Shown here one piece after another: positions 3,851 through 58,310 of a DNA stretch of 64,000 bases. Made by a program: the position numbers and the translations under genes. Numbering within the stretch: position 1 is the first letter of the stretch; each line of letters begins with the position of its first letter. The notes below the pieces were generated by a model that was given only the letters and a program-made list of their open reading frames with translations, was not told where the DNA came from and made no database searches. Location of the stretch: NCBI GenBank assembly GCA_039630415.1, contig JBCNVB010000025.1, forward strand, positions 75,419 through 139,418, read 5' to 3'. The DNA comes from a bacterium (GTDB taxonomy: Bacteria > DRYD01).

Positions 3851-4573
3851 CTAAAAGGATCTGTATACGTATTCTATTTTCTCTATTTTTAGACTATCTT
3901 TAAAGTTATCGGGAAAACCAGGAGGTAAATTTGAATCAACTAACCCGTCAAACGGATTAGTTAATGAATTAACATTCCCTTGCTGAATATTTGACAAGTT
4001 TATCGTTATCGCATGAGATGGATTATTAAAGTAATGAACAGGATCCTGACCAAAATCATCAGCAATTATTTGATACTCATAATCCCTTAAAAAAACTAGT
4101 ATTATAAACTTAAAAAAGTTAACATTCCCTATCAAGGTATCTGGTAGAACTATATTGAAACGTAACTCTTTGTTTGATGGTAATTGAGAATTGTTATCTA
4201 CAAGTATAGTTGACCATTCATCTGCAATTGGAGTATTTGCAGAAGGTGGATTGATTCTTCTAATCCTTCTAAATCCATTTTGAAAGTACATGATATACTG
4301 TGTCAGATCCAGGTTATTAGATAACAAATTATCATCGAACCTAAAGAAAATAGCTAAGTAAAATTTGTAATTATAGTTTTGCGAATTATACTGGTAATTA
4401 AAGCTATTTTGTCTATTTCCTTTTAGAAAAACTGATATAGATAGTAAATTTGTGTTTTGATTTGTAGGGGTGGATAAAGTTGGTGGGCTAGTAGCGCACC
4501 CAATTAATCCCTTAACCCAAAACACTATGAAAAATATTGCTAATACTCTTATTATTATTCTAGGAATTTTCAT
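3851..4573 (-). CDS. Hypothetical lipoprotein, last gene of the fliHIJ run
   Basis: N-terminal signal with lipobox LIGC (..VKGLIGCATSPP). Its start overlaps the fliJ stop by 14 nt. No recognisable domain. Confidence 0.4.
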   Translation of the reverse strand: MKIPRIIIRVLAIFFIVFWVKGLIGCATSPPTLSTPTNQNTNLLSISVFLKGNRQNSFNYQYNSQNYNYKFYLAIFFRFDDNLLSNNLDLTQYIMYFQNGFRRIRRINPPSANTPIADEWSTILVDNNSQLPSNKELRFNIVLPDTLIGNVNFFKFIILVFLRDYEYQIIADDFGQDPVHYFNNPSHAITINLSNIQQGNVNSLTNPFDGLVDSNLPPGFPDNFKDSLKIEKIEYVYRSF

Positions 4574-5024
4574 TAGCTTTGTTTCTTGAGAATTTTATAG
4601 TGGATAGCTCATCCATAAACTTACTTTCAGCTATTTTCTGCTCTTGCAGATATTTCTGATATTCTTTTTCCTTTAGTTTTTCAAAACTTTTTCTTTCATT
4701 CATCTTTTCCTGTAACTTTTGCTTTTCTATCTCTACTTGTAATTTTGCCTGTTCTACTACTATTTTTTGTAGCTCTATGTCTTTTTTTAACTTATCAAGA
4801 TATTTGTTGAAATTTAGGAAAAAATCAGGCTGTGTTACTTGCGTTAACTTAAGCTTATATTCTTCTTTTTTGTACTCTAATGTTTTTATGAGATCTTCCA
4901 ATTTCTTTTCTTCTTCTATTAGCTTTCTTTGAGCTTGAGCAAATATCTTTTTTTGCTCTTCCTCTTCCTCAATCTTCATTTGCAATATTTTTTCAAGCTT
5001 AAATTTAAAAGGCTTAAAATGCAT
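4560..5024 (-). CDS. fliJ: Flagellar export chaperone FliJ-like coiled-coil protein
   Basis: 154 aa, K/E-rich all-helical sequence. It lies immediately after fliI with a 1-nt overlap, the canonical fliH-fliI-fliJ order. Confidence 0.6.
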   Translation of the reverse strand: MHFKPFKFKLEKILQMKIEEEEEQKKIFAQAQRKLIEEEKKLEDLIKTLEYKKEEYKLKLTQVTQPDFFLNFNKYLDKLKKDIELQKIVVEQAKLQVEIEKQKLQEKMNERKSFEKLKEKEYQKYLQEQKIAESKFMDELSTIKFSRNKANENS

Positions 5025-6376
5025 TATCTTTTCAACCTCTTGGTTACTTTTTCATCATAATCACTAACTATCTCAAGCATTTTTTTAATAGTATCTTGCA
5101 AATTATCCGGTTCGAAAACTCCTTGCTTTAGGAAAGAGTTTACCTGATCTATTTTTTCTATTGCATAATCTATCCTTGGATCAGTTCCTTTTTTATACAT
5201 TCCCAAAGTTATTATATCTTCATTTTTCTTATACGTACTTAGTATCTCTCTGATTATACCTGCTGCTCTTTGATGCTCTTTAGTTGTTATTTCTACGAAC
5301 AATCTACTTACGGATTGCAAAACATCTATAGCTGGGTAGTGGTTCATATGAGCTAGTTGTCTGGATAAAACTATATGTCCGTCAAGAATACCTCTTGTAG
5401 TGTCAGCTATTGGTTCATTCATATCGTCACCTTCTACCAAAACTGTGTAGATTGCAGTTATACTACCTGTGGGTGAAGTTCCTGGCCTTTCCATTAGTTT
5501 CGGTAATAAAGCGAACACGGAAGGTGTGTATCCTTTAGTTGAAGGTGGTTCTCCTATAGCTAGACCTATTTCTCTTTGAGCCATAGCAAATCTTGTAACA
5601 GAGTCCATCATTAGCATCACGTCTTTACCCTTATCTCTGAAGTATTCAGCTATAGCTGTTGCAACATAGGCTGATTTTAGTCTTACTAGTGCTGGTGTAT
5701 CAGAGGTTGCAACAACTACAACTGCCCTTTTTAACCCTTCCTCGCCCAAATCCCTTTCTATAAAGTCTCTCAACTCTCTTCCTCTTTCTCCAATAAGACA
5801 TAAAACGGTTAAATCAGCTTCGGTAAATCTTGTTATCATTGAAAGTGTTGTACTTTTACCCACACCTGATCCTGCGAAAATTCCTACTCTTTGTCCTTTA
5901 CCCAGGGTAAGTAGTGAATCTATAGCTCTAACACCTATTGAAAGAGGGGTTTTTATTCTTGGTCTCAAGAAAGGATTTGGTGGATCATTGTATATTGGAT
6001 ATAATTCTTCATACTCTATTGGTCCTTTACCATCTATGGGATTCCCTAACCCGTCAAGTATTCGTCCAAGTATTTTAGGTCCTACTTTAACCATTAACTG
6101 TTTCCCAGTTGCTCTTACTTCGTTTCCAGGTGAAACACCTATTGTTGACCCTATTGGCATGAGTAAAACTCTATCTTCCTTAAATCCAACCACTTCTGCA
6201 ACTATGGGTTCTGCATATTCGCTAGGATATATATGGCAAATTTCTCCAACTTGGCATTGAGGACCATCGCTTTCTATTACCAAACCTATAACCTGCTTAA
6301 CTTTACCATATACCTTTATCAAATCTTTTGAAGAAACATTCCTTATTATGTTTTTATACTTTTCCAATTGAAGCAT
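5024..6376 (-). CDS. fliI: Flagellum-specific (type III secretion) ATPase FliI
   Basis: 450 aa. Walker A is GSGVGKST. F1-beta-like core segments include LLMDSVTRFAMAQREIGLA and SITAIYTVLVEGDDMNEP. Flanked by FliH- and FliJ-like genes. Confidence 0.9.
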   Translation of the reverse strand: MLQLEKYKNIIRNVSSKDLIKVYGKVKQVIGLVIESDGPQCQVGEICHIYPSEYAEPIVAEVVGFKEDRVLLMPIGSTIGVSPGNEVRATGKQLMVKVGPKILGRILDGLGNPIDGKGPIEYEELYPIYNDPPNPFLRPRIKTPLSIGVRAIDSLLTLGKGQRVGIFAGSGVGKSTTLSMITRFTEADLTVLCLIGERGRELRDFIERDLGEEGLKRAVVVVATSDTPALVRLKSAYVATAIAEYFRDKGKDVMLMMDSVTRFAMAQREIGLAIGEPPSTKGYTPSVFALLPKLMERPGTSPTGSITAIYTVLVEGDDMNEPIADTTRGILDGHIVLSRQLAHMNHYPAIDVLQSVSRLFVEITTKEHQRAAGIIREILSTYKKNEDIITLGMYKKGTDPRIDYAIEKIDQVNSFLKQGVFEPDNLQDTIKKMLEIVSDYDEKVTKRLKR

Positions 6377-6395
6377 AACTTCTTACCTCTCCCAT

Positions 6396-7394
6396 CTATT
6401 TAGTCCTAAGAATTATTTCTTTTAAAACTTCAAGTTTAGTAGATATTCTTGAGTCTATTTTACCGAAATTAGTTTCGATTATACACCCGCCCTTTCCTAT
6501 TCTTTCATCTGGCGCAACTGTCAAGTTTTCTACATCTTCAAGTAAATGTTTTATTTTTTCCCTATAGTTTCTTACCTCTTCTAATTCTTCAGGGTTAACC
6601 CATATAGTTATTGATTTACTCCTTTCAACTTTTGACAGTAGTTCAGAAAGATAAGATGTAACAATACTTGGTTCTTCTTGAATTTTTTTGTTTATTATTT
6701 TTTCAGCTACTTCAAAAACTAGGTCTATTATTTCTTTCTCAAATTCCTTTACTATGCTTTGTCTTATACTTGATATAGTTGATATTTGTTGTTCTAATTC
6801 TTGAATTTTTTGGATATATTTTTGTTCTATAGCTTTTTGGCCTTCGGATAAACCCTTTTGGTATCCTTCGTTATATGCATTGTTCATAATTTCTTGGGCT
6901 TTTTTGTTTGCTTCTTCAACTGCTTTTTGAACTATTGATTCTGCTTGTTTCTGAGCCTGTTCTAAAATTGTTTTCTTTTGATTTTCTATCTCTTTTATTT
7001 TTTGTTCTTGCTCATTTATTTTTTGTTGTAGTTCCTCATTAAGTTTCTGATATTTTTCTTTTTCCTGCTCCAATTCAAATTCTATGTTAGACTTTGTTAC
7101 AATGTTTACATCTTTTAGTTCTTCAACTATCTCATTTACTGGTGCAGCTATCTCTGTTCTTTTTATTATCTTCTTTGCTATCTTTTCTTCGGTAAGGTTT
7201 AGTGATATCAAATCTGTTCCAACATTTTCTGCCTTTATTATACTTCCTATAATTTTAGGCTTGAAATTTGCTTCATTGAGATTTGTTTGAATTTGATTTG
7301 TTTGAATTTGCTGGATATCTATTTGCCCCTGATTTTCTGGTATTTGTTGATTTTCTGGATAGTCTGATTTACCTGATTTTTTTATTATTCCCAT
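6396..7394 (-). CDS. fliH: Flagellar assembly protein FliH-like
   Basis: 332 aa with a long E/K/Q coiled coil followed by a FliH-type C-terminal domain (IIDLVFEVAEKII...SITIWVNPEELEEV). Located directly upstream of fliI. Confidence 0.65.
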   Translation of the reverse strand: MGIIKKSGKSDYPENQQIPENQGQIDIQQIQTNQIQTNLNEANFKPKIIGSIIKAENVGTDLISLNLTEEKIAKKIIKRTEIAAPVNEIVEELKDVNIVTKSNIEFELEQEKEKYQKLNEELQQKINEQEQKIKEIENQKKTILEQAQKQAESIVQKAVEEANKKAQEIMNNAYNEGYQKGLSEGQKAIEQKYIQKIQELEQQISTISSIRQSIVKEFEKEIIDLVFEVAEKIINKKIQEEPSIVTSYLSELLSKVERSKSITIWVNPEELEEVRNYREKIKHLLEDVENLTVAPDERIGKGGCIIETNFGKIDSRISTKLEVLKEIILRTK

Positions 7395-7435
7395 TTTAGT
7401 TAATATACCTCTTCTTTTTTTAATTTATAAATCCC

Positions 7436-10024
7436 CTACAAAAATACCTTGAAATAATTTCCCATAGGTATTTTTTTAGTTTGATCCGGTAAATTAATTG
7501 GAATTTGCATGTCTTTATGGTAAACTAAAATATTTTTATACGGTGTTTTGTAAAGAGCAACATAGTTCATCTTTGTTTTTATAATGTCATGAATCATCAT
7601 TATTTCCTCTTCATCTTCCACTTCGAATTCCATAATTTGATTTGTTTGGTTGCGGATTTTCTCTTCCACAATTTTATGGAATAGTTTTGTTTTAATCTGT
7701 TTATTTTTTTTATTTAATTCTTTAATTTGCGCTTGCATTTTTTGAATATAATTTATAATGTTTTTTTCTTCTTGTTTTGTTATGTCTTTTAGGTTAGCTA
7801 GGAGATTGGTTAATTCAGATAAGTATTGAGCTACTTTTTTAGAAGTTATTGCTTCTATTCTTTTAACTCCCATTTGGATAGATGAACATTCCTTTATTTT
7901 GAATATTCCTATTTTTGAAGTTTGATCAAGGTGTGTTCCTCCACATAGTTCATACGAAAAGTCACCTATTTTTACTGTTCTTACAGTATCAGGATATTTC
8001 TCAGCAAATAAAGCTATAGCTCCCTCTTCTAATGCAATTGATAAAGGCTTATATTCAACTAGGACTGGTAAGTTCTCATATATTTTTTCATTTACTAGTT
8101 CTTCTATTTGATCTATTTGTTCCGATGTTAAATTTTCAAAATGAGTGAAATCGAACCTCAGTTTATCCTGATCAACCAATGATCCTGCTTGATAAACATG
8201 ATGACCAATAATCTTTCTAAGAGCAGAATGTAATAAGTGAGTACAAGTATGATTTATTGCTAATTCTTTTCTTCTTTGTTGATTTACTTCCAACCAAGCT
8301 TCGTGGTTTACTTGAATAACTCCCTCCTTTAATTTACCAATGTGAAAAATAAATTCTTCTACATGTTTTTGAGTATCGTATACTTCAAAAACAAAATTTT
8401 GGTTATATATTATCCCTTTATCTCCAACTTGTCCTCCAGACTCTGGATAAAAAGGTGTTTCAGATAATATTAGTATTACTTCCTCCCCTGGTTTATCAAT
8501 GTATTCTACCATTTCTAGTCCATTACCAGTATTTTTCAATATACCTATTATCTTGGATTGATACACTAAATTATCATATCCTACAAATTTGGTTTCATAT
8601 TTTTGATTAACAGAGAATATCTTTATATCAGTTTCCTTCTGTCTAGATCTTTGCCTTTGTATTTCTAGCTCTTTATAAAATTCATCTAAATCTATTTGAA
8701 AGTTTTTACTTTTTGATATTTCGATCGTTAATTCAATGGGGAAACCTAATGTATCATAAAGATAAAAAGCATCCTTACCTGTTATCTTATTTATGTCTAT
8801 TTTTGATATATACTCCATACCACGATATACGTTTCTATTAAAGCTATTTTCCTCTATTTCGAGCATTTTTTGTACATAGTCCTTTCTTTGATTTATTTCT
8901 GGGTATACTTTTTCAAATATACTTGCTACGATTTCGGTTGTATTTTTCAAAAAGTTTTTTGATATACCTAAAAGTTTTGAATACAGTAGTCCTCTTCTTA
9001 TTAACTTTCTAAGGACATAACCTCTGCCTTCATTCGAAGGTACTACGCCGTCTGCTAATAAAAAGTTAGCTCCTCTAATATGATCGGCAACTATTCTCTC
9101 ATATATTTCCTTTTTTTGATTATATTCATTAGGGTCGTATTTTATTTTCATTTCACTATAAACCTTTTCTACATCTTTATCAATATTTTGACGAATATAT
9201 TGAATTAGGGGTAAAAACAAATCAGTTTCGTATTGATTATTTTTGTTTTGAAGTATTCTAGTAAGTCTTTCAAGTCCCATCCCTGTATCAATATTCTTTT
9301 GAGGAAGAGGAAACAATTTTCCATCAGAATCTTTGAAATATTCAGTAAATACAATATTCCATATTTCAATGAATCTTTCTTTTCTTTGACATTCTTCACA
9401 TTCAAAACCAGGCTTACATGAAGGTTGATTACACGGAAAGTTTTCATAGAATATTTCAGTAGAAGGTCCGCAAGGGCCAGTTATTCCAGCAGGTCCCCAA
9501 AAGTTATCCTCCAAACGTACTATTTTTTCAGAAGGTATAGACAAACTCAACCAAATCTTTTCAGCTTCATCATCTTGAGGATGACAACTATAATATAATT
9601 TAGCAGGATCTATTTTGTAAACTTCAGTAAGAAGCTCGTAGGCCCAATATATTGACTCTTTTTTAAAGTAATCACCAAAAGAGAAATTACCAAGCATTTC
9701 AAAAAAAGTATGATGCCTAAGAGTATAACCTACGTTTTCTATATCATCCATTCTGAAGCATTTTTGACAGGTGGTAATTCTTCTGTATTTAGGTTCGACT
9801 TTGCCGGAGAATTCTGCTTTGAAGGGTACCATGCCAGCAGCGACGAAGAGGAGAGAAGGGTCGTTTTCGGGGATAAGACTGAAGCTAGGCAGCACGCGGT
9901 GCCCCTTACTCTCAAAAAATTTTAAAAATTTTTCTCTTATTTCTTCGTGCGTTAAAAGGTATCCCACCCAAACACCTCCATTTTCGTATCCCATTTTTGT
10001 AATGTATGTTTCGGTAATAATCAA
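7436..10024 (-). CDS. alaS: Alanine--tRNA ligase
   Basis: Class II AlaRS motifs are present: EIREKFLKFFESKGH, FTNAGM-like FVAAGMVPFK, the editing-domain HTCTHLLH, and CGGTH. The longest ORF starts at 10024. A GTG at 9967, preceded by GGAGGTG 5 nt upstream, would give the usual N-terminus (M)GYLLTHEEIREKF and is the more likely start. Confidence 0.95.
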   Translation of the reverse strand: MIITETYITKMGYENGGVWVGYLLTHEEIREKFLKFFESKGHRVLPSFSLIPENDPSLLFVAAGMVPFKAEFSGKVEPKYRRITTCQKCFRMDDIENVGYTLRHHTFFEMLGNFSFGDYFKKESIYWAYELLTEVYKIDPAKLYYSCHPQDDEAEKIWLSLSIPSEKIVRLEDNFWGPAGITGPCGPSTEIFYENFPCNQPSCKPGFECEECQRKERFIEIWNIVFTEYFKDSDGKLFPLPQKNIDTGMGLERLTRILQNKNNQYETDLFLPLIQYIRQNIDKDVEKVYSEMKIKYDPNEYNQKKEIYERIVADHIRGANFLLADGVVPSNEGRGYVLRKLIRRGLLYSKLLGISKNFLKNTTEIVASIFEKVYPEINQRKDYVQKMLEIEENSFNRNVYRGMEYISKIDINKITGKDAFYLYDTLGFPIELTIEISKSKNFQIDLDEFYKELEIQRQRSRQKETDIKIFSVNQKYETKFVGYDNLVYQSKIIGILKNTGNGLEMVEYIDKPGEEVILILSETPFYPESGGQVGDKGIIYNQNFVFEVYDTQKHVEEFIFHIGKLKEGVIQVNHEAWLEVNQQRRKELAINHTCTHLLHSALRKIIGHHVYQAGSLVDQDKLRFDFTHFENLTSEQIDQIEELVNEKIYENLPVLVEYKPLSIALEEGAIALFAEKYPDTVRTVKIGDFSYELCGGTHLDQTSKIGIFKIKECSSIQMGVKRIEAITSKKVAQYLSELTNLLANLKDITKQEEKNIINYIQKMQAQIKELNKKNKQIKTKLFHKIVEEKIRNQTNQIMEFEVEDEEEIMMIHDIIKTKMNYVALYKTPYKNILVYHKDMQIPINLPDQTKKIPMGNYFKVFL

Positions 10025-10173
10025 TTCTTCAACCTAGATAGGTCAACCTTTAGAAGGTTTTTCAAAAAATTTAGCTTTTAAATTTTTTTTAAGTCAAAAA
10101 AATTAAAAATCGTGTTAGTAGTGCCTAATACTACTACTATTTTAATAAATATATCTTTATAGTAGTAGTATAA

Positions 10174-10500
10174 TTATCCACATTTGTGGAAAAATTACAC
10201 CAAGCTAGTATTTTCAAGGTATCAAAAGAAGGGGGGTATGTGGAAAAAGTGTGGAAAAGTTACTAAAGTATGTGGAAAAATTTTTGAGCTTTTAGAAGTT
10301 TTCCACATTTTTTCCACATATTTTTCCACATTTTTTGATTATTTTTCCACATTTTAGGGGAAATTTTTCCACATGTGGAAATTTTCACCCGAAAATGTGG
10401 AAAAATTACCAAAGGATGTGGAAAACTAAAAATTTTATCTTTACAGTATGTGGAAAACTTTTAAATTTATGTGGATAAATCTATAAATCTTTGTGGAAAA
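10174..10500. promoter_or_regulatory. Cluster of 16 DnaA-box-like 9-mers (candidate oriC DnaA-assembly region)
   Basis: TTATCCACA at 10174. TGTGGAAAA at 10185, 10239, 10250, 10271, 10396, 10417, 10449 and 10492. TTTTCCACA at 10299, 10310, 10322, 10343 and 10365. TGTGGAAAT at 10374. TGTGGATAA at 10470. Fifteen match TT(A/T)TCCACA exactly and one is off by 1 nt. Spacings are 11-12 or 21-22 bp. The palindrome TTCCACATGTGGAA lies at 10367-10380. Confidence 0.75.
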
Positions 10501-11020
10501 CTTGTTTACATTTTTTGTTACAAAATTATTAAAAATATTGCCAAAATATTGACAAATATTGACGAGTTGTAAATGTTAACATATGAAATGTAAAATTTCT
10601 AAAATTTTTGTTAAAAATTTTTAAGCATTGATATAAAAGCAAAAAAACAATATAAGTTTATTAAATTTTTGTTAAAAAAATTGAAAAAAAGTAAACAATT
10701 CATTCGATTTTTTAAACAATGTAACAAAGTTATTGAAAAATTTTTAAAAAAATATTAGAGAACGACGCGAAATTATTAAAATTGTAAAAAAAATATTAAC
10801 ATAAAAAATTTTTTACAAAATTAATTATTTTTTTACAAATTTTACTAAAAATTTACAAATTTAACATGAAAAAATGTTACAAAAAAATTAAAAAAATGTT
10901 AATAAAAAAGCAAAAATATTACCAAAATATGACAAATATTACCAAAATATGACAAAAATATGAACAAAATATGAAAAATGTAAAAAAATATCGAAAAATA
11001 TTAACAAATTAAAACCTGGT
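10501..11020. other. Extremely AT-rich non-coding tract with 10-nt periodic repeats (candidate DNA-unwinding element or bent DNA)
   Basis: About 520 nt with almost no G or C and no ORF. Repeated AAATATTG(C/A)C at 10533, 10544 and 10554. Repeated AAATATTACC/AAAATATGAC from 10914. Recurrent TGTTA(A/C)(A/C)AAAA and TTTACAAA words. Confidence 0.45.
10914..10953. repeat. Perfect 20-nt tandem duplication AAATATTACCAAAATATGAC x2
   Basis: 10914-10933 and 10934-10953 are identical. Degenerate copies continue to about 10975, and a related AAATATTGCCAAAATATTGAC lies at 10533-10553. Confidence 0.9.
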
Positions 11021-11024
11021 CCTA

Positions 11025-11846
11025 CTAAAACCTGATCCTAACAAGTTGATCCCGAAATATAAACAAACTAACAAAAATACAAATCAAAGACAAAACAAAA
11101 GAAGCAAAAATAGCACCCTGCATATCAAAACTATAAAAAGCCCTACCATAAACATACATCATTAGAGTATAAGTCGAAGTACCTGGCCCACCCTCAGTAA
11201 CTATAAAAATCTCAGCAAAAACTTTCAAAGCAGCCAAAACAGATAAAAAAAAACAAAAATAAAAAGTTCCCTTCAATAAAGGCAAATACACAAACCATAA
11301 CCTCTGCACAAAACTCATCCCATCTATAACAGAATTCTCTACAATCTCCCTTGATATAGAATAAAGACCAGACAAATATATCACTACATAATACCCCAAC
11401 CCCTTCCAAAAAGTAACCAAAAAAGCCACCAACATCGCAAAAAAATAATCCGACATAAAAGGTAATCTAAACCCCAAAAACAAACTCAAATAATCATTAA
11501 TTACTCCCTCATCATTAAACATTATCTTAAACACAAAACCTATACTAGCTATCGGAATTACAACAGGCAAGTAAAATAAACTTCTAAACAAACCCGCCCA
11601 AAAACTAGTCAAGTGATATATACCAAATGCAATCAAAAAAGAAAAAAACTGTAAAGGTATAACTACTAAAACATAAATAAATGAATTCTTCAACGATACC
11701 CAGAAAAGACTATCTAATAATACTCTACTCGCTATCTCAAAAAAATTCCCATCCTTAACCAACAAATAAATACTCATCAAAACCGAAAAAATATTGAACA
11801 TAAACCATAACACAATAAAAGGAAGTATTAAAACAAAATAGTTCAT
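11025..11846 (-). CDS. ABC transporter permease (MalF/UgpA-like, binding-protein-dependent type)
   Basis: 273 aa with about 6 TM segments. EAA-loop motif is SREIVENSVIDGMSFVQRLWFVYLPLLKG. Its start overlaps the leuD stop by 4 nt. Confidence 0.85.
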   Translation of the reverse strand: MNYFVLILPFIVLWFMFNIFSVLMSIYLLVKDGNFFEIASRVLLDSLFWVSLKNSFIYVLVVIPLQFFSFLIAFGIYHLTSFWAGLFRSLFYLPVVIPIASIGFVFKIMFNDEGVINDYLSLFLGFRLPFMSDYFFAMLVAFLVTFWKGLGYYVVIYLSGLYSISREIVENSVIDGMSFVQRLWFVYLPLLKGTFYFCFFLSVLAALKVFAEIFIVTEGGPGTSTYTLMMYVYGRAFYSFDMQGAIFASFVLSLICIFVSLFIFRDQLVRIRF

Positions 11847-27982: not shown

Positions 27983-28103
27983 AAGATTAACATGGATAGA
28001 AAAGCATTTGTTTATAATATATTCTAGTTTGGTTTAAGTTGATCCTTCTGGTTTATAGGAAGGGTGGGACGGGTTGAGAGTAGAATATAGAGGAAGGGAA
28101 TTA

Positions 28104-28191
28104 GGAGGGATGGCCGAGTGGTCGAAGGCGGCGGTCTTGAAAACCGCAGTGGGGTCAATCCCCACCGGGGGTTCGAATCCCTCTCCCTCCG
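28104..28191 (+). tRNA. tRNA-Ser (anticodon UGA), class II with long variable arm
   Basis: Manual cloverleaf. Acceptor stem GGAGGGA/TCCCTCC. Anticodon stem GCGGT/ACCGC with loop CTTGAAA, giving anticodon TGA. Variable arm GTGGGG-TCAAT-CCCCAC. T arm GGGGG-TTCGAAT-CCCTC. Discriminator G at 28191. No encoded CCA. Stems are strongly GC-rich. Confidence 0.93.
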
Positions 28192-28434
28192 TCCCTACCC
28201 CTTCCCCCTCTCCATCATACCTCTTACCGTCTCCATTATTAACTCAAAAAAAAACAAACTAATTATCAAAACAAACAGCAAAATCTTACCTAGATACACG
28301 CAAACCATACGAAAAGCAGTACGTAAAATACTCGGCAAAAACCTAAAAATCCATATAGAGGAAGAATAAATTTTGCCATCCAAAATAAAAAGTGGAAAAA
28401 TAAAAAAAGCCAACCAAAGTAAGGAGGCTGTCAA

Positions 28435-30171
28435 ATGTTAGAACAAAAAATAAAAGATGAGTTAGCGGAAACTCTTCTTAAAAAAGAATTAATAACTCGT
28501 AAGCAACTTGAAAAAGCTCAAAAAAAAGCAGAAGAAGAAAACAAAGAACTTGATAAAGTTCTCATAGAACTAGGCTACATAACCGAAAAAGAATTGTATC
28601 AAGCAATCGCAGAAGAAATCGGATATGAATTCGTCGATCTTTCAGAAATCGAACTAAAACCAGAACTATCACAGTTTCTACCCGACAACCTTGCTAAAAG
28701 ATATAACGCAGTGCCAATAAAATTCGACGGAGAAAAATTAGTCGTAGCAATGTTAGACCCCCTAGATACCAATGCAGTAGATGATATAATGCTAATGACT
28801 GGAATGGAAATAGAAACAGTAATGGCAACAGAATCTGATCTACGAAGAGCTATAAACAAAGTCTATGGTACAGCAGAAATAGCAGAAGCGGAAGATATAT
28901 CCTCCTCAATAGCAGAAATAAATATCGGAGAACTCGCTGGTCTAGAATTAGGTGAAGCAGAAGAAGAGGAAATATCAGTCGATAAACTAAAAGAAATGGT
29001 AGATGAAGCACCAATCGTAAAATTGGTCAACCAAATAATATTCCACGCCATATCAGATAAAGCCTCAGATATACACATAGAACCCTGGCCCAAAGAAGTA
29101 GTAGTTAGATACAGAATGGACGGTATACTACACGAAATAATGAGAATCCCTAAACACATACTCGCACCCATGGTTTCCAGAATAAAAATAATGTCTGCAC
29201 TTGACATAGCAGAAAGAAGAAAACCTCAAGACGGTAAAATACACCTCAAATACGAAGGAAGAGATTTTGACTTACGGGTATCAACCGTACCAACTGTTAA
29301 CGGAGAAAAAGTCGTAATGAGAATACTCGACAAAAGCTCAGTAATGCTGGGACTTGATAGACTAGGATTCATGCCAGATATAAGAGAAAAACTAGAATGG
29401 CTTATATCAAAGCCCTACGGCATGATCCTAGTAACAGGACCTACGGGATCAGGAAAATCAACTACTCTCTATGCATGTTTGAATAAGCTTAACCAAGGAA
29501 CAGTTAATATAAGCACGGTGGAAGATCCCGTAGAATACCAAATACAAGGTATAAATCAGGTTCAGGTTAATCCAAAAGCGGGAGTAACCTTTGCTGCTGC
29601 ACTAAGAGCATTCTTACGACAAGACCCAGACATAATAATGGTCGGAGAAATACGGGACCACGAAACAGCTCAAATAGCTGTAGAAGCAGCACTCACGGGA
29701 CACCTAGTACTATCAACTCTACACACTAACGACGCTCCTTCAGCAGCTACACGACTTATCGAAATGGGTATAGAACCATTCTTAGTAGCCTCCGCAGTAG
29801 TAGGTGTACTAGCACAAAGACTCGCTAGAACCATATGTAACGCATGTAAAGAACCCTATACACCACCAAAAGAAGCTTTAAAAGATCTAGGACTAGCATA
29901 TACCGAAGAAGAAATAGTATTCTACAAAGGAAGAGGATGTGAAGCTTGTAAAGGTACGGGATACAAAGGAAGAACAGGAATACATGAACTACTAATCATC
30001 TCAGACAAAGCTAGAGAAGTAATCCTAAGAAGAGGAAGTGCAAACGAAATCAAAAGAGCAGTGCTAGAAGAAGGTTTCAAAACCCTCCAAGATGATGCAA
30101 TAAGAAAAGTACTGGAAGGAATAATATCCGTAGAAGAAGCACTAAGAGTAGTATTTATGGGCAATGCATAA
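28435..30171 (+). CDS. pilB: Type IV pilus / type II secretion assembly ATPase (PilB/GspE family)
   Basis: 578 aa. SD AAGGAGG lies 8 nt upstream. It has an N-terminal T2SSE_N/MshEN-like domain, Walker A GPTGSGKST, the Asp box, Walker B IMVGEIRD, the His box TGHLVLSTLHTN, and a tetracysteine motif CNACK...CEACKGTGYKGR. Confidence 0.9.
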   Translation: MLEQKIKDELAETLLKKELITRKQLEKAQKKAEEENKELDKVLIELGYITEKELYQAIAEEIGYEFVDLSEIELKPELSQFLPDNLAKRYNAVPIKFDGEKLVVAMLDPLDTNAVDDIMLMTGMEIETVMATESDLRRAINKVYGTAEIAEAEDISSSIAEINIGELAGLELGEAEEEEISVDKLKEMVDEAPIVKLVNQIIFHAISDKASDIHIEPWPKEVVVRYRMDGILHEIMRIPKHILAPMVSRIKIMSALDIAERRKPQDGKIHLKYEGRDFDLRVSTVPTVNGEKVVMRILDKSSVMLGLDRLGFMPDIREKLEWLISKPYGMILVTGPTGSGKSTTLYACLNKLNQGTVNISTVEDPVEYQIQGINQVQVNPKAGVTFAAALRAFLRQDPDIIMVGEIRDHETAQIAVEAALTGHLVLSTLHTNDAPSAATRLIEMGIEPFLVASAVVGVLAQRLARTICNACKEPYTPPKEALKDLGLAYTEEEIVFYKGRGCEACKGTGYKGRTGIHELLIISDKAREVILRRGSANEIKRAVLEEGFKTLQDDAIRKVLEGIISVEEALRVVFMGNA

Positions 30172-30952
30172 TCAATGGACTAAATGTGATAAATGTAGAC
30201 AAATAATAAGCGCTGTAGATCTAGAAGAAAACCTCTGGGTCTGCCCCAAGTGTAATAACCACCAATACATAACAGCTACCCAAAGAATACAAATAACCTT
30301 CAATCATTATCAGGAATTATTCAAAGACATAAAACCGAAAGACTTCCTTAATTTTGAAGACTATGCGGAAAAACTTAAAAAAGATGCAGAAAAGTTAGGT
30401 ATAGAAGAAGCAATAGTAGTTGGACAAGCCTATTTGTTACCCGATCAACAGAATGAATACCCCATATGTTTTGGCATAATGGACTTTGGATTTAGAGGTG
30501 GATCAATGGGAAGCGTAGTGGGAGAAAAAATAGCTCTAATAGCGCAAGTAGCATACGAAAAACAACAACCCTTAATAATATTCTCAGCCTCAGGCGGAGC
30601 TAGAATGCAAGAAGGAATCATAGCACTTATGCAAATGGCTAAAACCGTAGCATCTATAAACAAACTTAAGCAAAAAAAAATACCATTCATAAACGTAGTA
30701 ACAAATCCTACTACGGGTGGAGTGGCTGCTAGCTTTGTCGGAATCGCAGACATAATTATCTCCGAACCAGAAGCAATTATTGGATTTGCTGGTCAAAGAG
30801 TAATAGAACAAACCATCAAGAAAAAACTACCTCCCAACTTTCAAACCGCAGAGTTTAACCTTTCTAACGGACTAATAGATCAAATCGTACATAGAAAGAA
30901 AATACCCTACTTTCTTCTGGAATTTATAAAAGCATTCTACTTTTGGTTATAA
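30164..30952 (+). CDS. accD: Acetyl-CoA carboxylase carboxyltransferase beta subunit
   Basis: 262 aa. N-terminal zinc ribbon is CDKCRQ...CPKCN. Carboxyltransferase motif is GGSMGSVVGEK...SGGARMQEG. Overlaps pilB by 8 nt. Confidence 0.9.
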   Translation: MHNQWTKCDKCRQIISAVDLEENLWVCPKCNNHQYITATQRIQITFNHYQELFKDIKPKDFLNFEDYAEKLKKDAEKLGIEEAIVVGQAYLLPDQQNEYPICFGIMDFGFRGGSMGSVVGEKIALIAQVAYEKQQPLIIFSASGGARMQEGIIALMQMAKTVASINKLKQKKIPFINVVTNPTTGGVAASFVGIADIIISEPEAIIGFAGQRVIEQTIKKKLPPNFQTAEFNLSNGLIDQIVHRKKIPYFLLEFIKAFYFWL

Positions 30953-30969
30953 AACGGAGACAAAACTAA

Positions 30970-31671
30970 GTGAAATACCAAAAAATACAAAAAATAATAC
31001 AAACAAGAAAGTTCATAATAATAGGTTCACCAGCAAGCAACAACTATCAAGTAGTACAAACTTTTATAGATCATGGGATAGACATAATTAAGCTGCATCT
31101 TAACATGACTCACCCCGTAAGCAATGTAACTTTATCAAGTTTAAAAGAAGAAGAGTCAAACATTTATCCTGTAATATCTCAAAATCCTCAAATCGTATGG
31201 GGAATAGTTCCGGGTAATCTGCTAACCAATCCCAAATCTTTTGAGGAAATTCCAAACGAAACTTTACAACGGTTATTCGATTTCGTAGATCTATTTTACT
31301 ACTCCTATACAGCTCACTATCTCAAAATTGATTTACCCAAGATGGTTGCAATAGACAGAGTATTACAAAGAGAGGAATTATCTATTTTGGAAAGAATGGG
31401 TTTTTGGGGAATAGAAACATCGATAGTTGATAAAAATAGTTACGGTTTACCTTTAACATTACAAGACATTATTAACTTGGAAAGAATAGTTAAAAATACA
31501 ACGATACCGATCTTTGTGCCAACCCAAAAGAAAATAACGCCTAAAGATGTGAGAATTTTGTATGATATAGGTGCAAAAGGAATAGTTTTAGGACAAATCT
31601 CCACTTCCCTAGAAATTGATACAGCAAGAAAAATAATAAGTGAATTCGTTGATCAAGTTCAAAAACTATGA
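30970..31671 (+). CDS. Hypothetical protein, possibly a TIM-barrel fold
   Basis: 233 aa with a GTG start. It shows alternating beta/alpha character and a C-terminal IPIFVPT...GAKGIVLG phosphate-binding-like segment. No firm family assignment. Confidence 0.4.
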   Translation: MKYQKIQKIIQTRKFIIIGSPASNNYQVVQTFIDHGIDIIKLHLNMTHPVSNVTLSSLKEEESNIYPVISQNPQIVWGIVPGNLLTNPKSFEEIPNETLQRLFDFVDLFYYSYTAHYLKIDLPKMVAIDRVLQREELSILERMGFWGIETSIVDKNSYGLPLTLQDIINLERIVKNTTIPIFVPTQKKITPKDVRILYDIGAKGIVLGQISTSLEIDTARKIISEFVDQVQKL

Positions 31672-32618
31672 TAGATATATCAGTAGTCATACCGGCTTAC
31701 AATGAGGAGAAGTACATTCTCAACTCTCTTAGATCACTTGTTAATCAATCTTTATCCTCCAAAATAAGATATGAAATAGTAGTTGTAGACAACAATAGTA
31801 CGGACAAAACTAAGGAAAGAGTGGAGGAGTTTATTCAGTATTTTAAGAACAAGAAGAAACTGGATAAGTCACTAAGTAATATAGACATAAGGATAATAGA
31901 AGAGAAAAAGCAAGGTGTTGCGTATGCAAGGCAAACAGGGTTTTCCCAATCAAGAGGCTGGATAATAGCTACTACCGATGCGGATTGCATTCTACCACCC
32001 TTATGGATAAGAACTATCTACAACATATTCAAACACAACTACGATTACTTGTCTTATCAACTTATAAGCGGCTTACCACGAAAAATAAGAAAAGAGATAA
32101 TAAAGTCATTCAAAATGCCAATCGTTGGTGCAACAGGATTAATAAAATTTTATGATGACGATACATATGAATTGCAGGTAATAAATAGATTGATTCCCGT
32201 TTTTCTTGGAATAGGGAATTTTTTTTGGTTTTCACCAGCCCTCCATGGCTCCAATTTCGCTATCCTCAAAGAATACTTCATAAAAGTTGGAGGATTCAAC
32301 ACTAATCTCAAAACCGGTGAAGACCTCGATCTGGGAGTAAGAATATCCAAATACGGAAGAATAGTGTTTCTTCCCGCAGTAGCTTACTCCTCTTCCAGAA
32401 GATTTAGAAAAAATCTGCTAAAAGCAGTATTAATATACACGTTTGCAAATTTCCTTTCCCATAGACTGTTCGGTAAACCTATAGTCAATGAATTGGATAC
32501 AGCCAGAGGAGAAAGAGAAATATTCTATCAACCTCTCAACCTAAACCAAGAATTCCAAAAAATAAAAAACAAACTTAAAGAAATAATTCAGGATATAAAA
32601 AGCAAACTGGATATATAA
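31668..32618 (+). CDS. Family 2 glycosyltransferase
   Basis: 316 aa. Contains ISVVIPAYNEEKYI, a TDAD (DxD-like) motif and a GEDLDLG motif. Overlaps the upstream gene by 4 nt. Confidence 0.8.
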   Translation: MIDISVVIPAYNEEKYILNSLRSLVNQSLSSKIRYEIVVVDNNSTDKTKERVEEFIQYFKNKKKLDKSLSNIDIRIIEEKKQGVAYARQTGFSQSRGWIIATTDADCILPPLWIRTIYNIFKHNYDYLSYQLISGLPRKIRKEIIKSFKMPIVGATGLIKFYDDDTYELQVINRLIPVFLGIGNFFWFSPALHGSNFAILKEYFIKVGGFNTNLKTGEDLDLGVRISKYGRIVFLPAVAYSSSRRFRKNLLKAVLIYTFANFLSHRLFGKPIVNELDTARGEREIFYQPLNLNQEFQKIKNKLKEIIQDIKSKLDI

Positions 32619-37266: not shown

Positions 37267-40200
37267 ATGAATTCAAAAGGTTTATCATTATTGGAACTGA
37301 TAGTGGGTGTATTGATAATAACGTTGATGTTTGCTATATCAGTACAGCTGTTTTATACTTTTATCAGCATCCAATATTTGATAGATTCAAGGATACATCA
37401 ACATATAGAACAGTGTTTTTTGAATTGAAGAAAGCGATAAAAGAAGCGAATGAGGTGAAGAATATATACAATTTAGCAACTGTAAGTGCGATATACTTGC
37501 AGGTAAGAAATAGAATATATGGTTATAGGTTAAGAAGGGACTTACCTATATTACAAAGAAGGTTAGAGAAATCGGTAGATGGTGGATATGCATGGTATTT
37601 TATACCCAATACGGAAAATATAGAGGACATAAGATTTATTGCCTCTATTCCATATTCACAATCGAAAGCTGTATTTGTGAATATCAAAATGGGATATTCA
37701 AAAGCAAGATTTACAAATACTCATAATTTTGTAGCTTTACTGAGATCTAAGTATTATTCTGAGTCTTCTCAAAATTATGCTATTGCAGCTACAATACGTA
37801 CAGTAATCCAGGACGGTAATAACCGCTATTTCAGAGATCATCTGCAGGTTATTTTCTCACGTAATCTAGATAATCTTCCCAATCCTATAGTTTATTCTTT
37901 ATTTCGTGTTGTTCCTGATTATAATGTATTTTACAAAACAATAGATTCATTTATCAATTCATACAATCTGATTTTTACTATTAGTCCTTACAATCCTCCC
38001 TCAGGTTATGATACATATATGAATATAGCAAAAATAACAAGGCAAAGTATTTATTCTCCGATGAGTTATGAAATGGTTACGTCTATGTCAAGTTATGATC
38101 CTACTTATCATTTAGGGAGAAGTCCTTATTTAAATGCTGAAGAGGAAGCAGATGCCATCAAAGCTATAGTAGTTGGTAATTACATATACACTGTGTATTC
38201 GACAATGGAAATAATATATACCCCCTCGGCAAATTCTTCAAGTAGTACGCATCATTATTCTATATATTTAGCATATAAGAAGCATATTCCAAATTACTGG
38301 AATACGAATATCTCTACTCCTTGGGTGAAGAGAAAGATATTTAGTATAGCTGTTCCAGAATATACAGGTAACCTGCCAATACCGATTATGAGATCAGTAA
38401 GAATGGTATATGGTCAAGTGGGGAGTAACAGATTCCATGTGACATTTATTTTGGAAAGATTAATCGGGGCTGGAACTGCGGTTTCTAGAAGGGATATATA
38501 CTATTTAGCTAGTCCAGATGGAGTAAACTGGAGTGTGGTAAACATAGATGATAGTTTGGGGCAAGATAATATATACCCTTTAGATGTAATACCTCTGTTT
38601 GGTGATTTAAATGGGACTACAAACAAGCTACATATGGTTTACATAAATGCGACTAATCCGAGTGATTTAATGAATAGCTCACTTGAGCTGGCTTATACTT
38701 CTACGTCAAACGGTGTGGCATTTGTTGCACCTCAAATATGGAACACATGGTCTCAGAATCCGCCACTTTATAGAAATTTCATTGCTACCTCGATTCAAAT
38801 GAGGGGCTATGCGGATATGGAGGCTTTTATACATAACGGACAGATACATGTGGTTATAGTTAATAGACATGTTCAGTTTGTATTACATATTGCGGGGACG
38901 AATATTATTAGGACGATTTATGCAAATCTAGTGTACCTGGTTAAAGGGAATTTTAATCAATCAGCAATATTTAATGCTTATCTTCATCCACAGTATGGCT
39001 TACCAGGACCAGCAAAGTTTTTCAAAAGTGTAGCCTTGTGTGTGCTAGATCAACAAAATACGACGTATGTTCATATTTTCATGGCTGATGTAGATAGAGG
39101 CTTGTATTACATACGGGATACTGCTAACGGTATAATAGTTTCTGATTTGAATAGCCCTAGCTACGGAGGAATAACTATAATGCATTCGGATAGATATATA
39201 GGCAGCCTAGATTGTGCCTTTAAGAATGAATATATACATGTGTCCTACATAATGACAAATCCACCACTTATAGATTCTAATGGTAATCGTTATTTTGAGA
39301 TGTATAACCCAAATAACCTAATTAAACTTGGCTATACTAGAATAAGAACTAGTAATCAAGTATTTGTAGATTTGGAGATTAGTAGTTATTTTGCTAATAC
39401 GAATGGAAGTATACATGGTGATGGTGTAAGAATGCAAGATTTCCTTCGTCTTGGTTCAGTTTATCTTAATACTCTTAGGCAGTGCTTAGTTTTAACTGAT
39501 TATCTTCACATTATTGCAATAAAAAGAGCATTTTACACTTATAATGGAGCACCTGTACATGTAGGCCATCCTTTTGTAGAAGTGATACATATAAATCCTT
39601 TCTCTGAACCCCTGAATACTATGGGATCTTTTGATGCTAAAAATATTCATCCTGTGGATTCCAACAGACTTTTACACATTAACGGTTGTGATGCAAATGC
39701 TGTAACATATGTTGATACATATAGGGGTAATATAAAGGTAATACTCCCCAATCGTTCAGAAACACAGGTTATACCATATTCTACTGGTGTAGAAGCTAGT
39801 GACATAAAGGTAGTAAATGAATACATATACGTAGCATATGCAGAGGCAGTAAGAGGAAGAGGGGATGTTGTGAGGTTAGCAATAAGTAGGGATAAAGGTG
39901 AAAGTTGGTCTATACTAGACTTCAATGCTCCACGGTTTGGAATGGTACTACCGTCGCGTCAAGAAATTAGAGAAATAGCAATGGAGGTGAAAGAAAACCT
40001 AATTAACATAGTGTATTCTTCGGCTGATTCACTTTCATATACCTACCTAATAAAGAGAGTAAAACATGGTCCGGGTCAATCATTTAGTGAGGCTTATATA
40101 CCAGTTACAAATTTCGAAGCAGAACGTATAAAAACTCAACTGGATAATCAAAACAGATTGCATATTTTGGGGCGCTCAGAATACCGTATTCATGGATTTT

Positions 40201-40517
40201 TCTACGTAATTTTTGATAACAATACTAACACATTTGTTGATAATGGTTTAGGAGGTTTAACGTTAACATCTTTACCACAATATTCACAAATGTTTAGTAG
40301 AATTGGACCTGAAGCGGATATATTTGTAGAACCAAATGGAGATGTTGTGATAGTAGCAGAAACATGGAATCCACATAATAGGACGGAGGTGTATTTGTTC
40401 AAAAGGAGTCAGGGTATGTGGTTACCTCCAGTAAGAGTACCTTTTGGACCCGTGCAATTCCAACCAGGATTAGTTGAAGGAATGAATGTAAGGGCATTAA
40501 AGATAAACAGATTCTAG
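37267..40517 (+). pseudogene. Giant type IV pilin-like protein, paralog A, interrupted by a 1-nt frameshift near 37340
   Basis: SD GGAGGAGGTG sits 8 nt before ATG 37267. The leader is MNSKG|LSLLELIVGVLIITLMFAIS, in the frame of ORF 37231-37428. Homology to paralogs B and C continues in the frame of ORF 37413-40517, already from about 37338 (ISTAVLYFYQHPIFDRFKDTSTYRTVFFEL against C ISSTAVLYFYQHPTLDKFKQVSAYRTVFFEL). Adding one base restores a roughly 1083-aa protein. Confidence 0.65.
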
Positions 40518-42627: not shown

Positions 42628-42702
42628 GACTGGAAAGACTAAATTAATAGGGGGATCCAAGCTATCAAATCATTGAAAATATCCCTAAGAGAGGTGTTAA
42701 GC

Positions 42703-45700
42703 TTGTTAGGTAAAGTATTATCACGAAAGGGTATATCATTATTGGAATTGATAGTAGGGGTAGTTATACTAGGATTGGTATTTTCAATATCATCCACGAC
42801 AGTTTTTTATCTATATCAACATCCTATGCTGGATAGATTTAAACACACCTCGGCATATAGAACAGTATTTTTTGAGTTAAGCAAGATGGTAAAGGAAGCA
42901 AATGAAGTGAAAAACATATACAATACGTCAGCGGTAAGTGCAATATACCTGCAAGTAAGAAATAACTTATATGCTTATAGGATAAGAAGAAATGTGCCGA
43001 TAGTACAAAGGAGATTGGAAAAATCTACGGATGGAGGTCATAGTTGGTTTATATTGTCAAATACTGCAGGAATTGAGGATATAGTGTTTAGAGCAACAAC
43101 TCCTTATCAAAATGCGAAAGTGGTATTGGTATCAATCAAAATGAATAGTGTATCCAAAAAGCTGTTAACGAATCATGAATTTGCTGTTTTGTTAAGGAAA
43201 AAGCATTCATATCAAGCCGGAGGAGGTAGTGGTGGAGGAGGTGGTGGCGGTGGTGGGGGTGGAAGTACAGACCCAATAACAGGACAGTATATTTTCTCTG
43301 GAATGATGAGAAGATTAACAACTACTTCATCAGGTAACTGGATTGTAAGCTACGGTATACAATTGGTAACAGGAAGTAGTTCAACTTCTTTTGGTTTACC
43401 ATCAACTATTTATTCTTACTCTATTTCTCAACTAATCCATGCTAATGATCCATTTCCATACTCAAACATAGATACCTTTATAAATACGGCTAATAATACA
43501 CAGAATATAGCTTTTCCAATTCTTTCTGTTCCTGATAATATAAGACCTATGTCGTATACACCAAGAACTATGTATAGATTTACAAGGCCTAGTAATAGTA
43601 GTCAGGTGACGGGTCAGGTAGTGAGTAATATTCAGGAATTTTTCCCTTCATATGGTAGTGCAAGGTTATCGGATATGAGTCCGAACCAGGATCCTGATAC
43701 ATTTGAGTTAATAGTAGTTGGTAATTATTTGTATACGGTATATGCTGTAAAGGAAATAGTATATGATCCTCAACCTTCTACGAGCTATACTAGATACTCA
43801 AATTCTATTTATTTTGCATATCGGAGAAATGTACCTAATTATTGGCAAACGAATACAAGAGTGTCATGGGTAAAGAGGAGGATATTTTCCATAGTAAGCA
43901 CTGAAAGTACAAGTACACCACTGACAACTGTAAATTACAACATTATCTCTGTAAGGATGGTGTATGGGCAAGTAGGAACAAATAGATTCCATGTAACCTT
44001 TATTCTCGATACTAACAACACTAATCCCAATCCGCAAACAAGAGATATATACTATTTGGGAAGCCCAGATGGAATAAATTGGACATCAAGAAGTATAGAT
44101 GATCAATTTGCAAGTGATAATATATATCCTCTTGCGGTGGTACCTTTAGTAGGGAATATAGGTGGTAATCCGGATACTCTACATTTGGTGTATACTTTGA
44201 GTAATCTTAGTAACCCTCAGCAAGCATCAATTGGTTATACATCTACAAGTAATACCATCAACTATAGAACACCAGAGTTATGGAATGATAGTACTTCGAT
44301 TGGTTTGCGACCTTTATACAGGGGAACTAGCAGTCTACCATTTTATATAAACAATTTTATAGATATGGAAGCGGTAATATTCAACAATGAGATACATATA
44401 GCAATAGGTTGTGAATCAATAACAGTTCCTTCAAACCCTTCAATAAGAGCAAACCTGGTATACATGGTAAAGAGTAATGTTAATAGTGGTGCAGTATACA
44501 ATAACTACTACAATCTTGATGCTGTTAGGTTTAGGAGTGTAACTATTTCACTAGGTAGATTCGTAGGTATTGATTTTGTAAATATATTCGCTGCTGGCTT
44601 AAATAGAGGTCTACATTACATCAGAGCTGATATAAATTCAATAAGAAGTATGGATCTAAATGTCCAACAAGGTTTTGTACTACCTGATTTCAATACTACA
44701 TATGTATGTAGTTTAGATTCAGTATATGCTGGTGGATATTTACATGTTTCTTTCATAAGTACACCATCTGGTAATGTCCAGTCAGGTACCTTTAATCCAG
44801 GAATACAATTATCACTAGATTACATTAGAATATCACATCCTAACCAACCTTATCAAAGGATAGCAGGTAATACCATCAGTGCTAATTTAACAGCGAACAA
44901 TAATAGTGTTGATAACCAAGCTTTACCTTCAGTGTATCTATCATATGCATTAAGGCAGGCAATAGCTGTATCAAATTATCTCCATATACTGTTTATAAAT
45001 CAATCAATTGGTGAAGTACTATATATAAATCCTATGAATGCTAGTTTACCTTCCAGTATGTCTTTTGATACAATAGCTGTTCATCCAGTAGATAGGTCCC
45101 TTAGAATAAATACTTTAAGTTTTGATAATTCAGTTATTAGTTATAGTTGTTATAATGGTAGTGGTCCGCCTTCTGCACTTGATACTCGTATAGGTACTCT
45201 CAAAGTAATATTAGCTAATCGAGATATTACTGAAGCGGATGGTAATAGGAATGTTAGTACAATGTTTGTAAATTCTGATGGTTCTAGAACTTGCGGATAC
45301 TATAATGATGTGCAGGTAGTGGGTAATGCGATATACGTAGCATATTCAGAGCTATTGAGTCCATCGATGTTAAGGTTAAAGATGGCAGTGAGTAGGGATA
45401 ATGGACAAACATGGCAAACATCGGTAGTAAATAACTCTGATAGTGGATGGCACATAGATTTAAAAGTTAGAGGATCTATAATAAATATAACTCACTCGGA
45501 TAGTTACGGTAGGCTGATGGTAACTAAAAGGGTAGGAAATAATTGGGTTAATTTTCAACCCCCAAATCAAACGAATAATGTTTTGAATAGAGCATTTTTA
45601 GATAATCAAAATAGATTACATATACTTAGCTTTTCTTCGGTGTACTTCGCTCGTACTGTTACTCATTCAAATCTTGTGTTTAGCCCACCTATAGCTTATT

Positions 45701-56672: not shown

Positions 56673-56707
56673 ATAAAAAGTATAAAAAGCTTGGAGGAGG
56701 ATGAAGT

Positions 56708-58290: not shown

Positions 58291-58310
58291 CTGAAAAGGG
58301 GGTAAAATAG

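Follow-up and report, generated by a model that had tools for sequence, protein, structure and literature searches.

A conserved DnaA-box array with a DnaA-trio module upstream of alaS is a candidate chromosomal replication origin in a Calescibacterium-related bacterium

The 64-kb stretch of DNA analyzed here (the window) carries ordinary chromosomal genes, among them fliHIJ, alaS, leuC, leuD, a leuA-like gene, a release factor gene, mfd, gyrA, accC and accD, as well as aconitase, tsf, pyrH, rpsL, mutS, and pilB-like and holB-like genes. Three successive plus-strand ORFs without a Pfam match are also present (37413-40517, 42673-46017 and 46101-49418, encoding 1034, 1114 and 1105 aa, respectively). 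The longest non-coding stretch in the window is a gap of 1057 bp with a GC content of 22%, located at positions 9968-11024; the second-longest spans 452 bp and contains a tRNA-Ser. Part of the gap is occupied by an array of DnaA boxes (10174-10500), which is the subject of this study. On one side lies alaS (PF01411; 7436-9967, minus strand), which is transcribed away from the array and whose likely start codon, the GTG at 9967, is preceded by GGAGGTG. On the other side lies an ABC permease gene (BPD_transp_1; 11025-11846, minus strand), the last gene of an operon running toward the array. The gene gyrA is located 14 kb from the array. Searching the intergenic region against Rfam yielded no match, and no terminator-like site was found in this region.

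Between the array and the permease gene lies an AT-rich tract of 524 bp (10501-11024), which has a GC content of 15.6% and is strand-asymmetric. The original prediction, based on the sequence of the window, had placed the array in the only long non-coding island, next to an AT-rich tract and flanked by alaS and an ABC permease gene rather than by dnaA or dnaN, and the lengths, composition and Pfam assignments given above agree with this description. The tract is composed of motifs of the TTTGTAA and TTTAACA type (alaS-sense strand) at spacings of 9, 11 or 20 bp, and all relatives have a corresponding tract, 360-930 bp in length. Hexamers resembling a -35 box (TTAACA, TTTACA and TTGTCA) recur on its minus strand between 10545 and 10984. 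Promoter-like matches numbered 15 in the region 9900-11100, compared with 8.3 ± 3.0 in shuffled sequences, and eight of the ten on the minus strand lie within the AT-rich tract and are directed toward the boxes and alaS; the promoter-like excess in the tract is only about 2 sd above the shuffles. At the edge of the tract, a direct repeat (TAAAACCTGGTCCTA / TAAAACCTGATCCTA, 11010-11040, 16 bp from start to start) spans the stop codon of the permease gene.

The array itself consists of 16 DnaA boxes. Fifteen are exact matches to TTWTCCACA, starting at 10174, 10185, 10239, 10250, 10271, 10299, 10310, 10322, 10343, 10365, 10396, 10417, 10449, 10470 and 10492, and only two other exact matches occur elsewhere in the 64 kb (35821 and 46826). 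The expectation from shuffled windows is 1.89 ± 1.37 matches per 64 kb, and none of 100 shuffles reached 17. The 16th site, at 10374 on the minus strand, is a box with one mismatch (ATTTCCACA), which is a perfect box in all relatives that were aligned. Every coordinate of the original prediction, which listed 15 exact boxes and one 1-nt variant, was thus reproduced. A cluster of DnaA boxes in non-coding DNA at a density far above chance, here 15 exact boxes and one variant in 327 bp, is expected for an oriC.

As had been proposed, the boxes form three orientation blocks. Block 1 contains four minus-strand boxes (starts at 10185, 10239, 10250 and 10271; 10185-10279), which read TTTTCCACA toward alaS and toward the DnaA-trios described below. 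Block 2 contains five plus-strand boxes (starts at 10299 to 10365; 10299-10373) pointing away from alaS, and is positioned tail-to-tail with block 1 and head-to-head with block 3. The latter, with six minus-strand boxes (starts at 10374 to 10492; 10374-10500), is a mirror image of block 2 and abuts the long AT-rich tract. Together, blocks 2 and 3 constitute a dyad: an inverted repeat with 55-nt arms that are 82% complementary and a centre at 10373/10374. The one box outside the blocks is the plus-strand consensus box TTATCCACA at 10174-10182, which lies between the R1-like box at 10185 and the trios and, being inverted, forms a convergent pair with the former.

From box to box, the intervals are 11, 54, 11, 21, 28, 11, 12, 21, 22, 9, 22, 21, 32, 21 and 22 bp. 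The claim that all spacings are 11-12 or 21-22 bp was slightly overstated, as this applies to 11 of the 15 intervals, but the helical phasing that had been deduced from it holds for boxes of the same orientation: none of the 12 distances between same-orientation neighbours deviates by more than about 0.12 turn from a multiple of 10.7 bp. The intervals of 9 and 28 bp coincide with orientation switches, and those of 32 and 54 bp correspond to three and five helical turns, respectively. The 54-bp interval harbours the sole long box-free gap in the array, and within it the motif TTGAAAATACT is found on the alaS-sense strand (10207-10217, minus strand; AGTATTTTCAA on the plus strand). Its AATACT core is invariant in six genomes and the surrounding spacer is variable; the motif may be the site of an accessory (bending) protein.

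Inspection of the alaS-proximal end of the array revealed a module that had been missed in the original prediction. Read on the plus strand, it consists of ACTACTACTAT at 10130, an 18-nt AT-only stretch, ATAGTAGTAGTAT at 10159, AA, the consensus box TTATCCACA (10174-10182), TT and TGTGGAAAA (10185-10193). In the alaS-sense direction, the invariant module reads TTTTCCACA-AA-TGTGGATAA-TT-ATA CTA CTA CTA T. The plus strand at 10160-10171 (5'-TAG TAG TAG TAT-3', that is, 3'-TAT GAT GAT GAT-5') contains three perfect DnaA-trios and one degenerate NAN trio, with the box duplex located 3' of them on this strand. The distance between the first trio (10169-10171) and the perfect box at 10185-10193, which has the orientation of R1 or box#6 toward the unwinding side, is exactly 13 bp, and this spacing is the same in all relatives. 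The trio columns TATACTACTACT are also invariant among all relatives aligned. In the window, TAGTAGTAG occurs seven times, against an expectation of 0.75, and two of the seven copies are in the module.

The trios are part of a larger repeat. An inverted trio copy (ACTACTACTAT in plus-strand reading; 10130-10140, minus strand) forms with the segment 10159-10171 an inverted repeat with 13-bp arms, which in relatives are invariant while the loop is variable. As a DNA hairpin, this repeat has a predicted free energy of -8.3 kcal/mol (z -4.0). A third, partial trio copy (GTTAGTAGTG; 10114-10123, plus strand) is conserved as CACTAC on the alaS-sense strand. The AT-only core of 18 bp (10141-10158) adjoins the trios and is a candidate for the first-melting part of a DUE; a wider candidate DUE would extend over about 10060-10173. 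In line with this, the 40-mer at 10140-10179 is the least stable of the intergenic region, with a nearest-neighbour dG of -37.3, compared with a mean of -47.1 (sd 3.0) for the window, which is about 3 sd lower in stability. AT-rich, easily melted DNA adjoining the boxes, another property expected of an oriC, is therefore present as a sequence property at 10140-10179, and also in the 524-bp tract.

The origins of Bacillus subtilis, Clostridioides difficile and Helicobacter pylori share a basal unwinding system, in which DnaA boxes are followed by DnaA-trios and then by an AT-rich DUE. Published rules for finding this system (Pelliciari et al. 2021, PMC8287927) require a box with at most two mismatches and, after a spacer of 0-16 bp (mode 13), three or more consecutive NAN trios whose consensus is 3'-GAT-5', read on the strand that has its 3' side toward the box. 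The module at 10160-10193 agrees with these rules in its box, its spacer and its trios. It resembles the basal unwinding system in having a high-affinity box oriented toward the DUE, 13 bp to the first trio, 3'-GAT-5' trios and an AT-rich stretch immediately after them; the top-strand trios of the array (CTACTACTAT) are nearly those of C. difficile (CTACTACTATTACTACTAT). There are also clear differences. The co-oriented box pair found beside the trios in B. subtilis is absent, since the box at 10174-10182 is inverted relative to that at 10185-10193: of the stretch separating the upstream box from the trios, 9 bp form a perfect inverted box and not a co-oriented weaker one. In B. subtilis, box reversal inactivates incC and is lethal, which counts against reading the locus as an oriC; the class, however, accepts single-box modules besides co-oriented pairs. 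The GC-rich spacer of 4-5 bp between proximal box and trios, which is frequent but not universal in the basal unwinding system, is absent as well, its place being taken by AA on the plus strand (TT in the alaS-sense direction), and this also counts against an oriC. In addition, there are only four in-frame trios, these belong to one arm of an inverted repeat with invariant 13-bp arms, and the locus is not beside dnaA. One related locus, L020, bears on the role of the two boxes: its trio-proximal inverted box is mutated (TGGGGATAA, 8620-8628), but no change has affected the trios or the correctly oriented upstream box, which is compatible with the latter being the box that matters.

The module and the AT-rich tract lie at opposite ends of the array, and the side on which unwinding would occur has to be considered. 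If the locus is an origin, the DNA might be opened in the 15.6%-GC tract at 10501-11024, in which case the trio palindrome would have another function, for instance that of an operator of the alaS promoter. No other easily melted region comes close to the tract in size, relatives have conserved it, and its motifs have a 10/20-bp periodicity. Furthermore, E. coli AlaRS binds a palindrome at its own promoter, a precedent for the alaS-operator function. However, the boxes of block 3 face away from the tract, opposite to the arrangement of R1 and DUE in E. coli, no trios adjoin the box at 10492, and both the published spacing and polarity and the single least stable 40-mer are found on the trio side. 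We consider unwinding in the tract unlikely. In view of this orientation and of the absence of trios next to block 3, we assign primary unwinding to the alaS side.

Next, we consider the conservation of the locus. The closest AlaS relatives are 64-71% identical and come from hot-spring MAGs, two of which are named Candidatus Calescibacterium sp. Six related loci (L002, L003, L004, L006, L009 and L020) have 15-17 exact boxes each, directly upstream of alaS, and the order, orientation and spacings of the boxes are identical across the related lineages carrying the array. An alignment of six genomes showed divergence in the spacers but none in the boxes, the phylogenetic footprint expected when selection acts on the sites and their geometry. 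A metagenome scan with AlaS added L019 and L020, which are near-duplicates of L006, as well as distant relatives without boxes. Altogether, the more distant relatives (L007, L008, L017 and L021-L027; AlaS 57-59% identical) have kept alaS but have no boxes there. In relatives, the genes running toward the array are, in order, a permease gene, mfd, a small ORF, the release factor gene, a second small ORF and another permease gene, and those running away from it are alaS-fliHIJ.

Some observations on assembly and gene order at this locus are worth recording. Three independent assemblies (L001, L005 and L019) break within the box array or the AT tract, where their contigs end. Exact-protein look-ups with products of the window gave no match for alaS (TTG start) and, for leuC, only a 3.7-kb Logan contig, which ends inside the AT tract. 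The element is thus an assembly hazard, so that the origins of this lineage will often be absent from MAGs. In the window, the segment 11843-18661, with leuD, leuC, a leuA-like gene, an unknown gene of 565 aa and a gene for a SpoIID-domain protein, is inserted in the operon, which is contiguous in all relatives. The 565-aa and SpoIID-domain genes lie on the opposite strand past the gene-orientation switch in L002, L003 and L009; in L004, the SpoIID-domain gene is on the alaS strand, downstream of alaS-fliHIJ.

The constant position of the array raises the possibility that it is a DnaA-controlled promoter, coupling transcription of alaS (and fliHIJ) to the DnaA level and having no role in replication. 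In all lineages with the array, alaS follows directly downstream of it, and promoter-like sites are present between the trio module and alaS, such as TTGACT-18-TAAATT (10068-10097, minus strand), a consensus match that may serve alaS. This explanation is nevertheless very improbable. Known DnaA-regulated promoters have one to a few boxes, not 16 phased over 327 bp, and a promoter would leave the trios, the AT tract and the flip in strand bias described below unexplained. Moreover, the distant relatives listed above keep alaS without boxes.

Replication leaves a strand bias whose polarity switches at the origin. In the window, the total GC skew runs from negative to positive with a flat minimum at about 23-30 kb, and gene orientation diverges at 28 kb; the array is 13-20 kb away from this minimum. 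The window skew shows no flip at the array, which counts against an oriC at this position. Measures based on synonymous sites narrow the switch down no further than to about 4.5-37 kb, and the switch points obtained from GC3, four-fold-site GC and keto skews conflict with one another. We set the synonymous skews of the window aside because they are confounded by gene-specific use of A/C-ending or G/T-ending codons. Since the GC-skew minimum and the divergence of gene orientation are both within 13-20 kb of the array, an Ori-Finder-type rule would pick the array.

The codon use responsible for this confounding is extreme in some genes. The permease gene at 11025-11846 and its orthologues in L002, L003, L006 and L009 have extreme G/T-ending codons, opposite to their neighbours; on the coding strand, the four-fold sites of the permease gene are G21:C0. 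Conversely, blocks of genes with strongly A/C-ending codons were found at alaS-fliHI (4560-9967), pilB-accD (28435-32618) and yebC/tsf/pyrH/rpsL (55905-58736) of the window. The alaS-fliHI genes of L009 (9965-14854) are extremely A/C-ending too, with four-fold sites of C112:G20 in alaS. This codon use probably reflects translational selection in well-expressed genes, and such blocks distort any skew-based origin call in these genomes.

Relatives give a clearer signal, because the genes to the left and to the right of the array are oriented alike. In L002/L003, genes of either orientation to the left of the array have a synonymous-site keto skew (plus strand) of -0.13 to -0.31, with the exception of two ABC permease genes, whose skew is opposite in every lineage; to the right of the array, the skew is +0.16 to +0.38 in seven of eight genes, the exception being fliJ (-0.07). 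In L006, the operon genes on the left are negative, except for pilB and the array-proximal permease gene; on the right, seven minus-strand genes are positive like their plus-strand neighbours, and alaS is about 0. Genes on both strands are thus informative left of the array in L002/L003 and right of it in L006. On each side, the strand running away from the array is enriched in G+T, which is the polarity of an origin. Hence, in L002/L003 and L006 the array is the exact point at which the strand bias of synonymous sites changes sign, and it does so with the polarity of an origin.

In L009, there is no flip at the array, and alaS, fliH and fliI have strongly "lagging-type" codons, which counts against an oriC. 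We tentatively attribute this anomaly of alaS, fliH and fliI to selection for A/C-ending codons. A homologue search and look-up allowed the L009 lineage to be extended by about 6.6 kb. In the extension, plus-strand genes are near -0.1 and minus-strand genes are +0.36 and +0.40; the replication component derived from these values is about +0.14 at 12-19 kb right of the array, versus about -0.2 on the left. The switch in the L009 lineage therefore lies within about 10-12 kb of the array. As origin polarity is found at 12-19 kb to the right, we regard the missing flip at the array as a local anomaly.

Transcription around the array had been a concern in the original prediction, which regarded flanking genes on the same strand as atypical for an origin. 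This arrangement proved to be no obstacle, as only a 6-kb operon runs toward the array in relatives. Should the array be the origin, genes would be transcribed head-on to one fork over about 17 kb in the window and over 6 kb in relatives, and this counts against the origin reading.

We also searched for origin indicator genes and for other sites at which replication might start. The comparison of clusters and genes covered 64 kb of this genome and about 22 kb per relative. Neither Pfam annotation of all large ORFs nor tblastn searches with the DnaA and DnaN proteins of E. coli detected dnaA or dnaN in the window or in 30 loci, and neither gene was found within 10 kb of the array in relatives; parAB and gidAB are absent from the window. 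The array is therefore not adjacent to dnaA/dnaN or other indicator genes, an adjacency that is common but not universal for oriC, and this counts against the origin reading. A literature search for an alaS-linked oriC returned nothing relevant. The gene-orientation switch of the window (27983-28434, with the tRNA-Ser) was considered as an origin and rejected: it contains no exact box and one box with one mismatch. In relatives, the gap at the gene-orientation switch measures 105-131 bp (L002/L003 and L009) or 407 bp (L006) and contains no boxes, and a gap so small and boxless is not an alternative origin. No other non-coding stretch able to hold an origin was found within 10 kb of the array in relatives.

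The main rival of the origin reading is that the array is a cluster titrating or regulating DnaA, comparable to E. coli datA or the DnaA-box clusters of B. subtilis, which would lie near the true origin and time initiation by sequestering or inactivating DnaA. Like those loci, it has dense high-affinity boxes away from dnaA. Sixteen such boxes exceed what an origin needs, no dnaA/dnaN is nearby, the GC-skew minimum of the window is 13-20 kb off, and L009 has no flip right at the array. On the other hand, datA and the B. subtilis clusters have no DnaA-trios and DUE and no switch in replication polarity, whereas both are present here, the switch in relatives. An invariant trio module at a spacing of 13 bp next to the least stable duplex looks like an unwinding device, for which titration has no need; in L002/L003 and L006, the array is precisely where the strand bias flips; and the relatives offer no other origin-sized non-coding stretch within 10 kb. 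A titration locus is expected to lack unwinding features and a polarity switch, but trios, an unstable duplex and a polarity flip in relatives were all found. This rival keeps a place because the window's own skew fails to pin the switch to the array, and we judge it improbable.

Known origins provide further points of comparison for the origin reading. E. coli oriC is located between gidA/mnmG and mioC and is not adjacent to dnaA, and its R1 box is oriented toward the DUE. As in E. coli, a DUE would be followed by an array in R1 orientation and then by an array in the opposite orientation, corresponding to blocks 1 and 2. The box-free gap with a conserved motif after the DUE-proximal box occupies the position that IHF has in E. 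coli, a likeness to be treated as a lead only. In contrast to the boxes of E. coli oriC, which are mostly of low affinity, those of the array are of consensus strength. The third, mirrored block, the 0.5-kb AT tract and the trios at canonical spacing also set the array apart from E. coli oriC, as does the lack of GATC and 13-mer repeats. The origin of Thermus thermophilus has 13 consensus boxes between dnaA and dnaN. With an origin of this type the array shares many perfect boxes of the TTATCCACA type and a thermophilic host, and differs from it in its alaS location, its mirrored blocks and its palindromic trio module.

On balance, the array is probably the chromosomal oriC of this Calescibacterium-related bacterium, with unwinding on the alaS side; that it is an oriC, leaving the side of unwinding out of account, can be said with somewhat greater confidence. 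The conserved array, the invariant trios, the least stable duplex and the strand-bias flip in relatives thus lend support to the candidate oriC away from dnaA/dnaN put forward in the original prediction. From these features, we infer DnaA binding, the site of unwinding and firing as an origin. According to the mechanism we propose, DnaA would occupy the 16 high-affinity, helically phased boxes in their three oppositely oriented blocks, of which block 1 (boxes 10185-10271) would point it toward the short unwinding module. A DnaA oligomer would extend from the box at 10185-10193 across 13 bp onto the single-stranded DnaA-trios (10160-10171, plus strand) and would then open the adjoining AT-only core at 10141-10158. 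Helicase loaded at the opened core would give rise to bidirectional replication.

That an origin should lie at a distance from dnaA is in itself no surprise, and the proposed mechanism agrees with known systems. The details in which the locus varies are the convergent arrangement of two consensus boxes, trios that form a palindrome, the lack of a GC spacer and a long AT tract with periodic motifs. More tentatively, the trio palindrome and the convergent consensus boxes could represent a distinct variant of the basal unwinding system, in which both strands, or an extruded hairpin, would display the same trio sequence and DnaA or the helicase loader would engage both strands symmetrically; the periodic AT tract of 0.4-0.9 kb would then be a second, undescribed accessory origin element of the phylum. 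This is a speculative possibility, and we do not expect it to be the probable one.

We found no description of an origin for Calescibacterota, and the one Calescamantes genome paper examined for these terms mentions neither oriC nor dnaA. The array provides a concrete candidate origin for this uncultivated hot-spring phylum. It anchors the assignment of replichores and the estimation of growth rates from metagenomic coverage in these genomes, and it explains the assembly breaks at this locus in L001, L005 and L019. As the probable oriC, it extends the unwinding module of box plus trios to another deep lineage, and its inverted proximal box, lack of a GC spacer and palindromic trios test which parts of that module are truly required.
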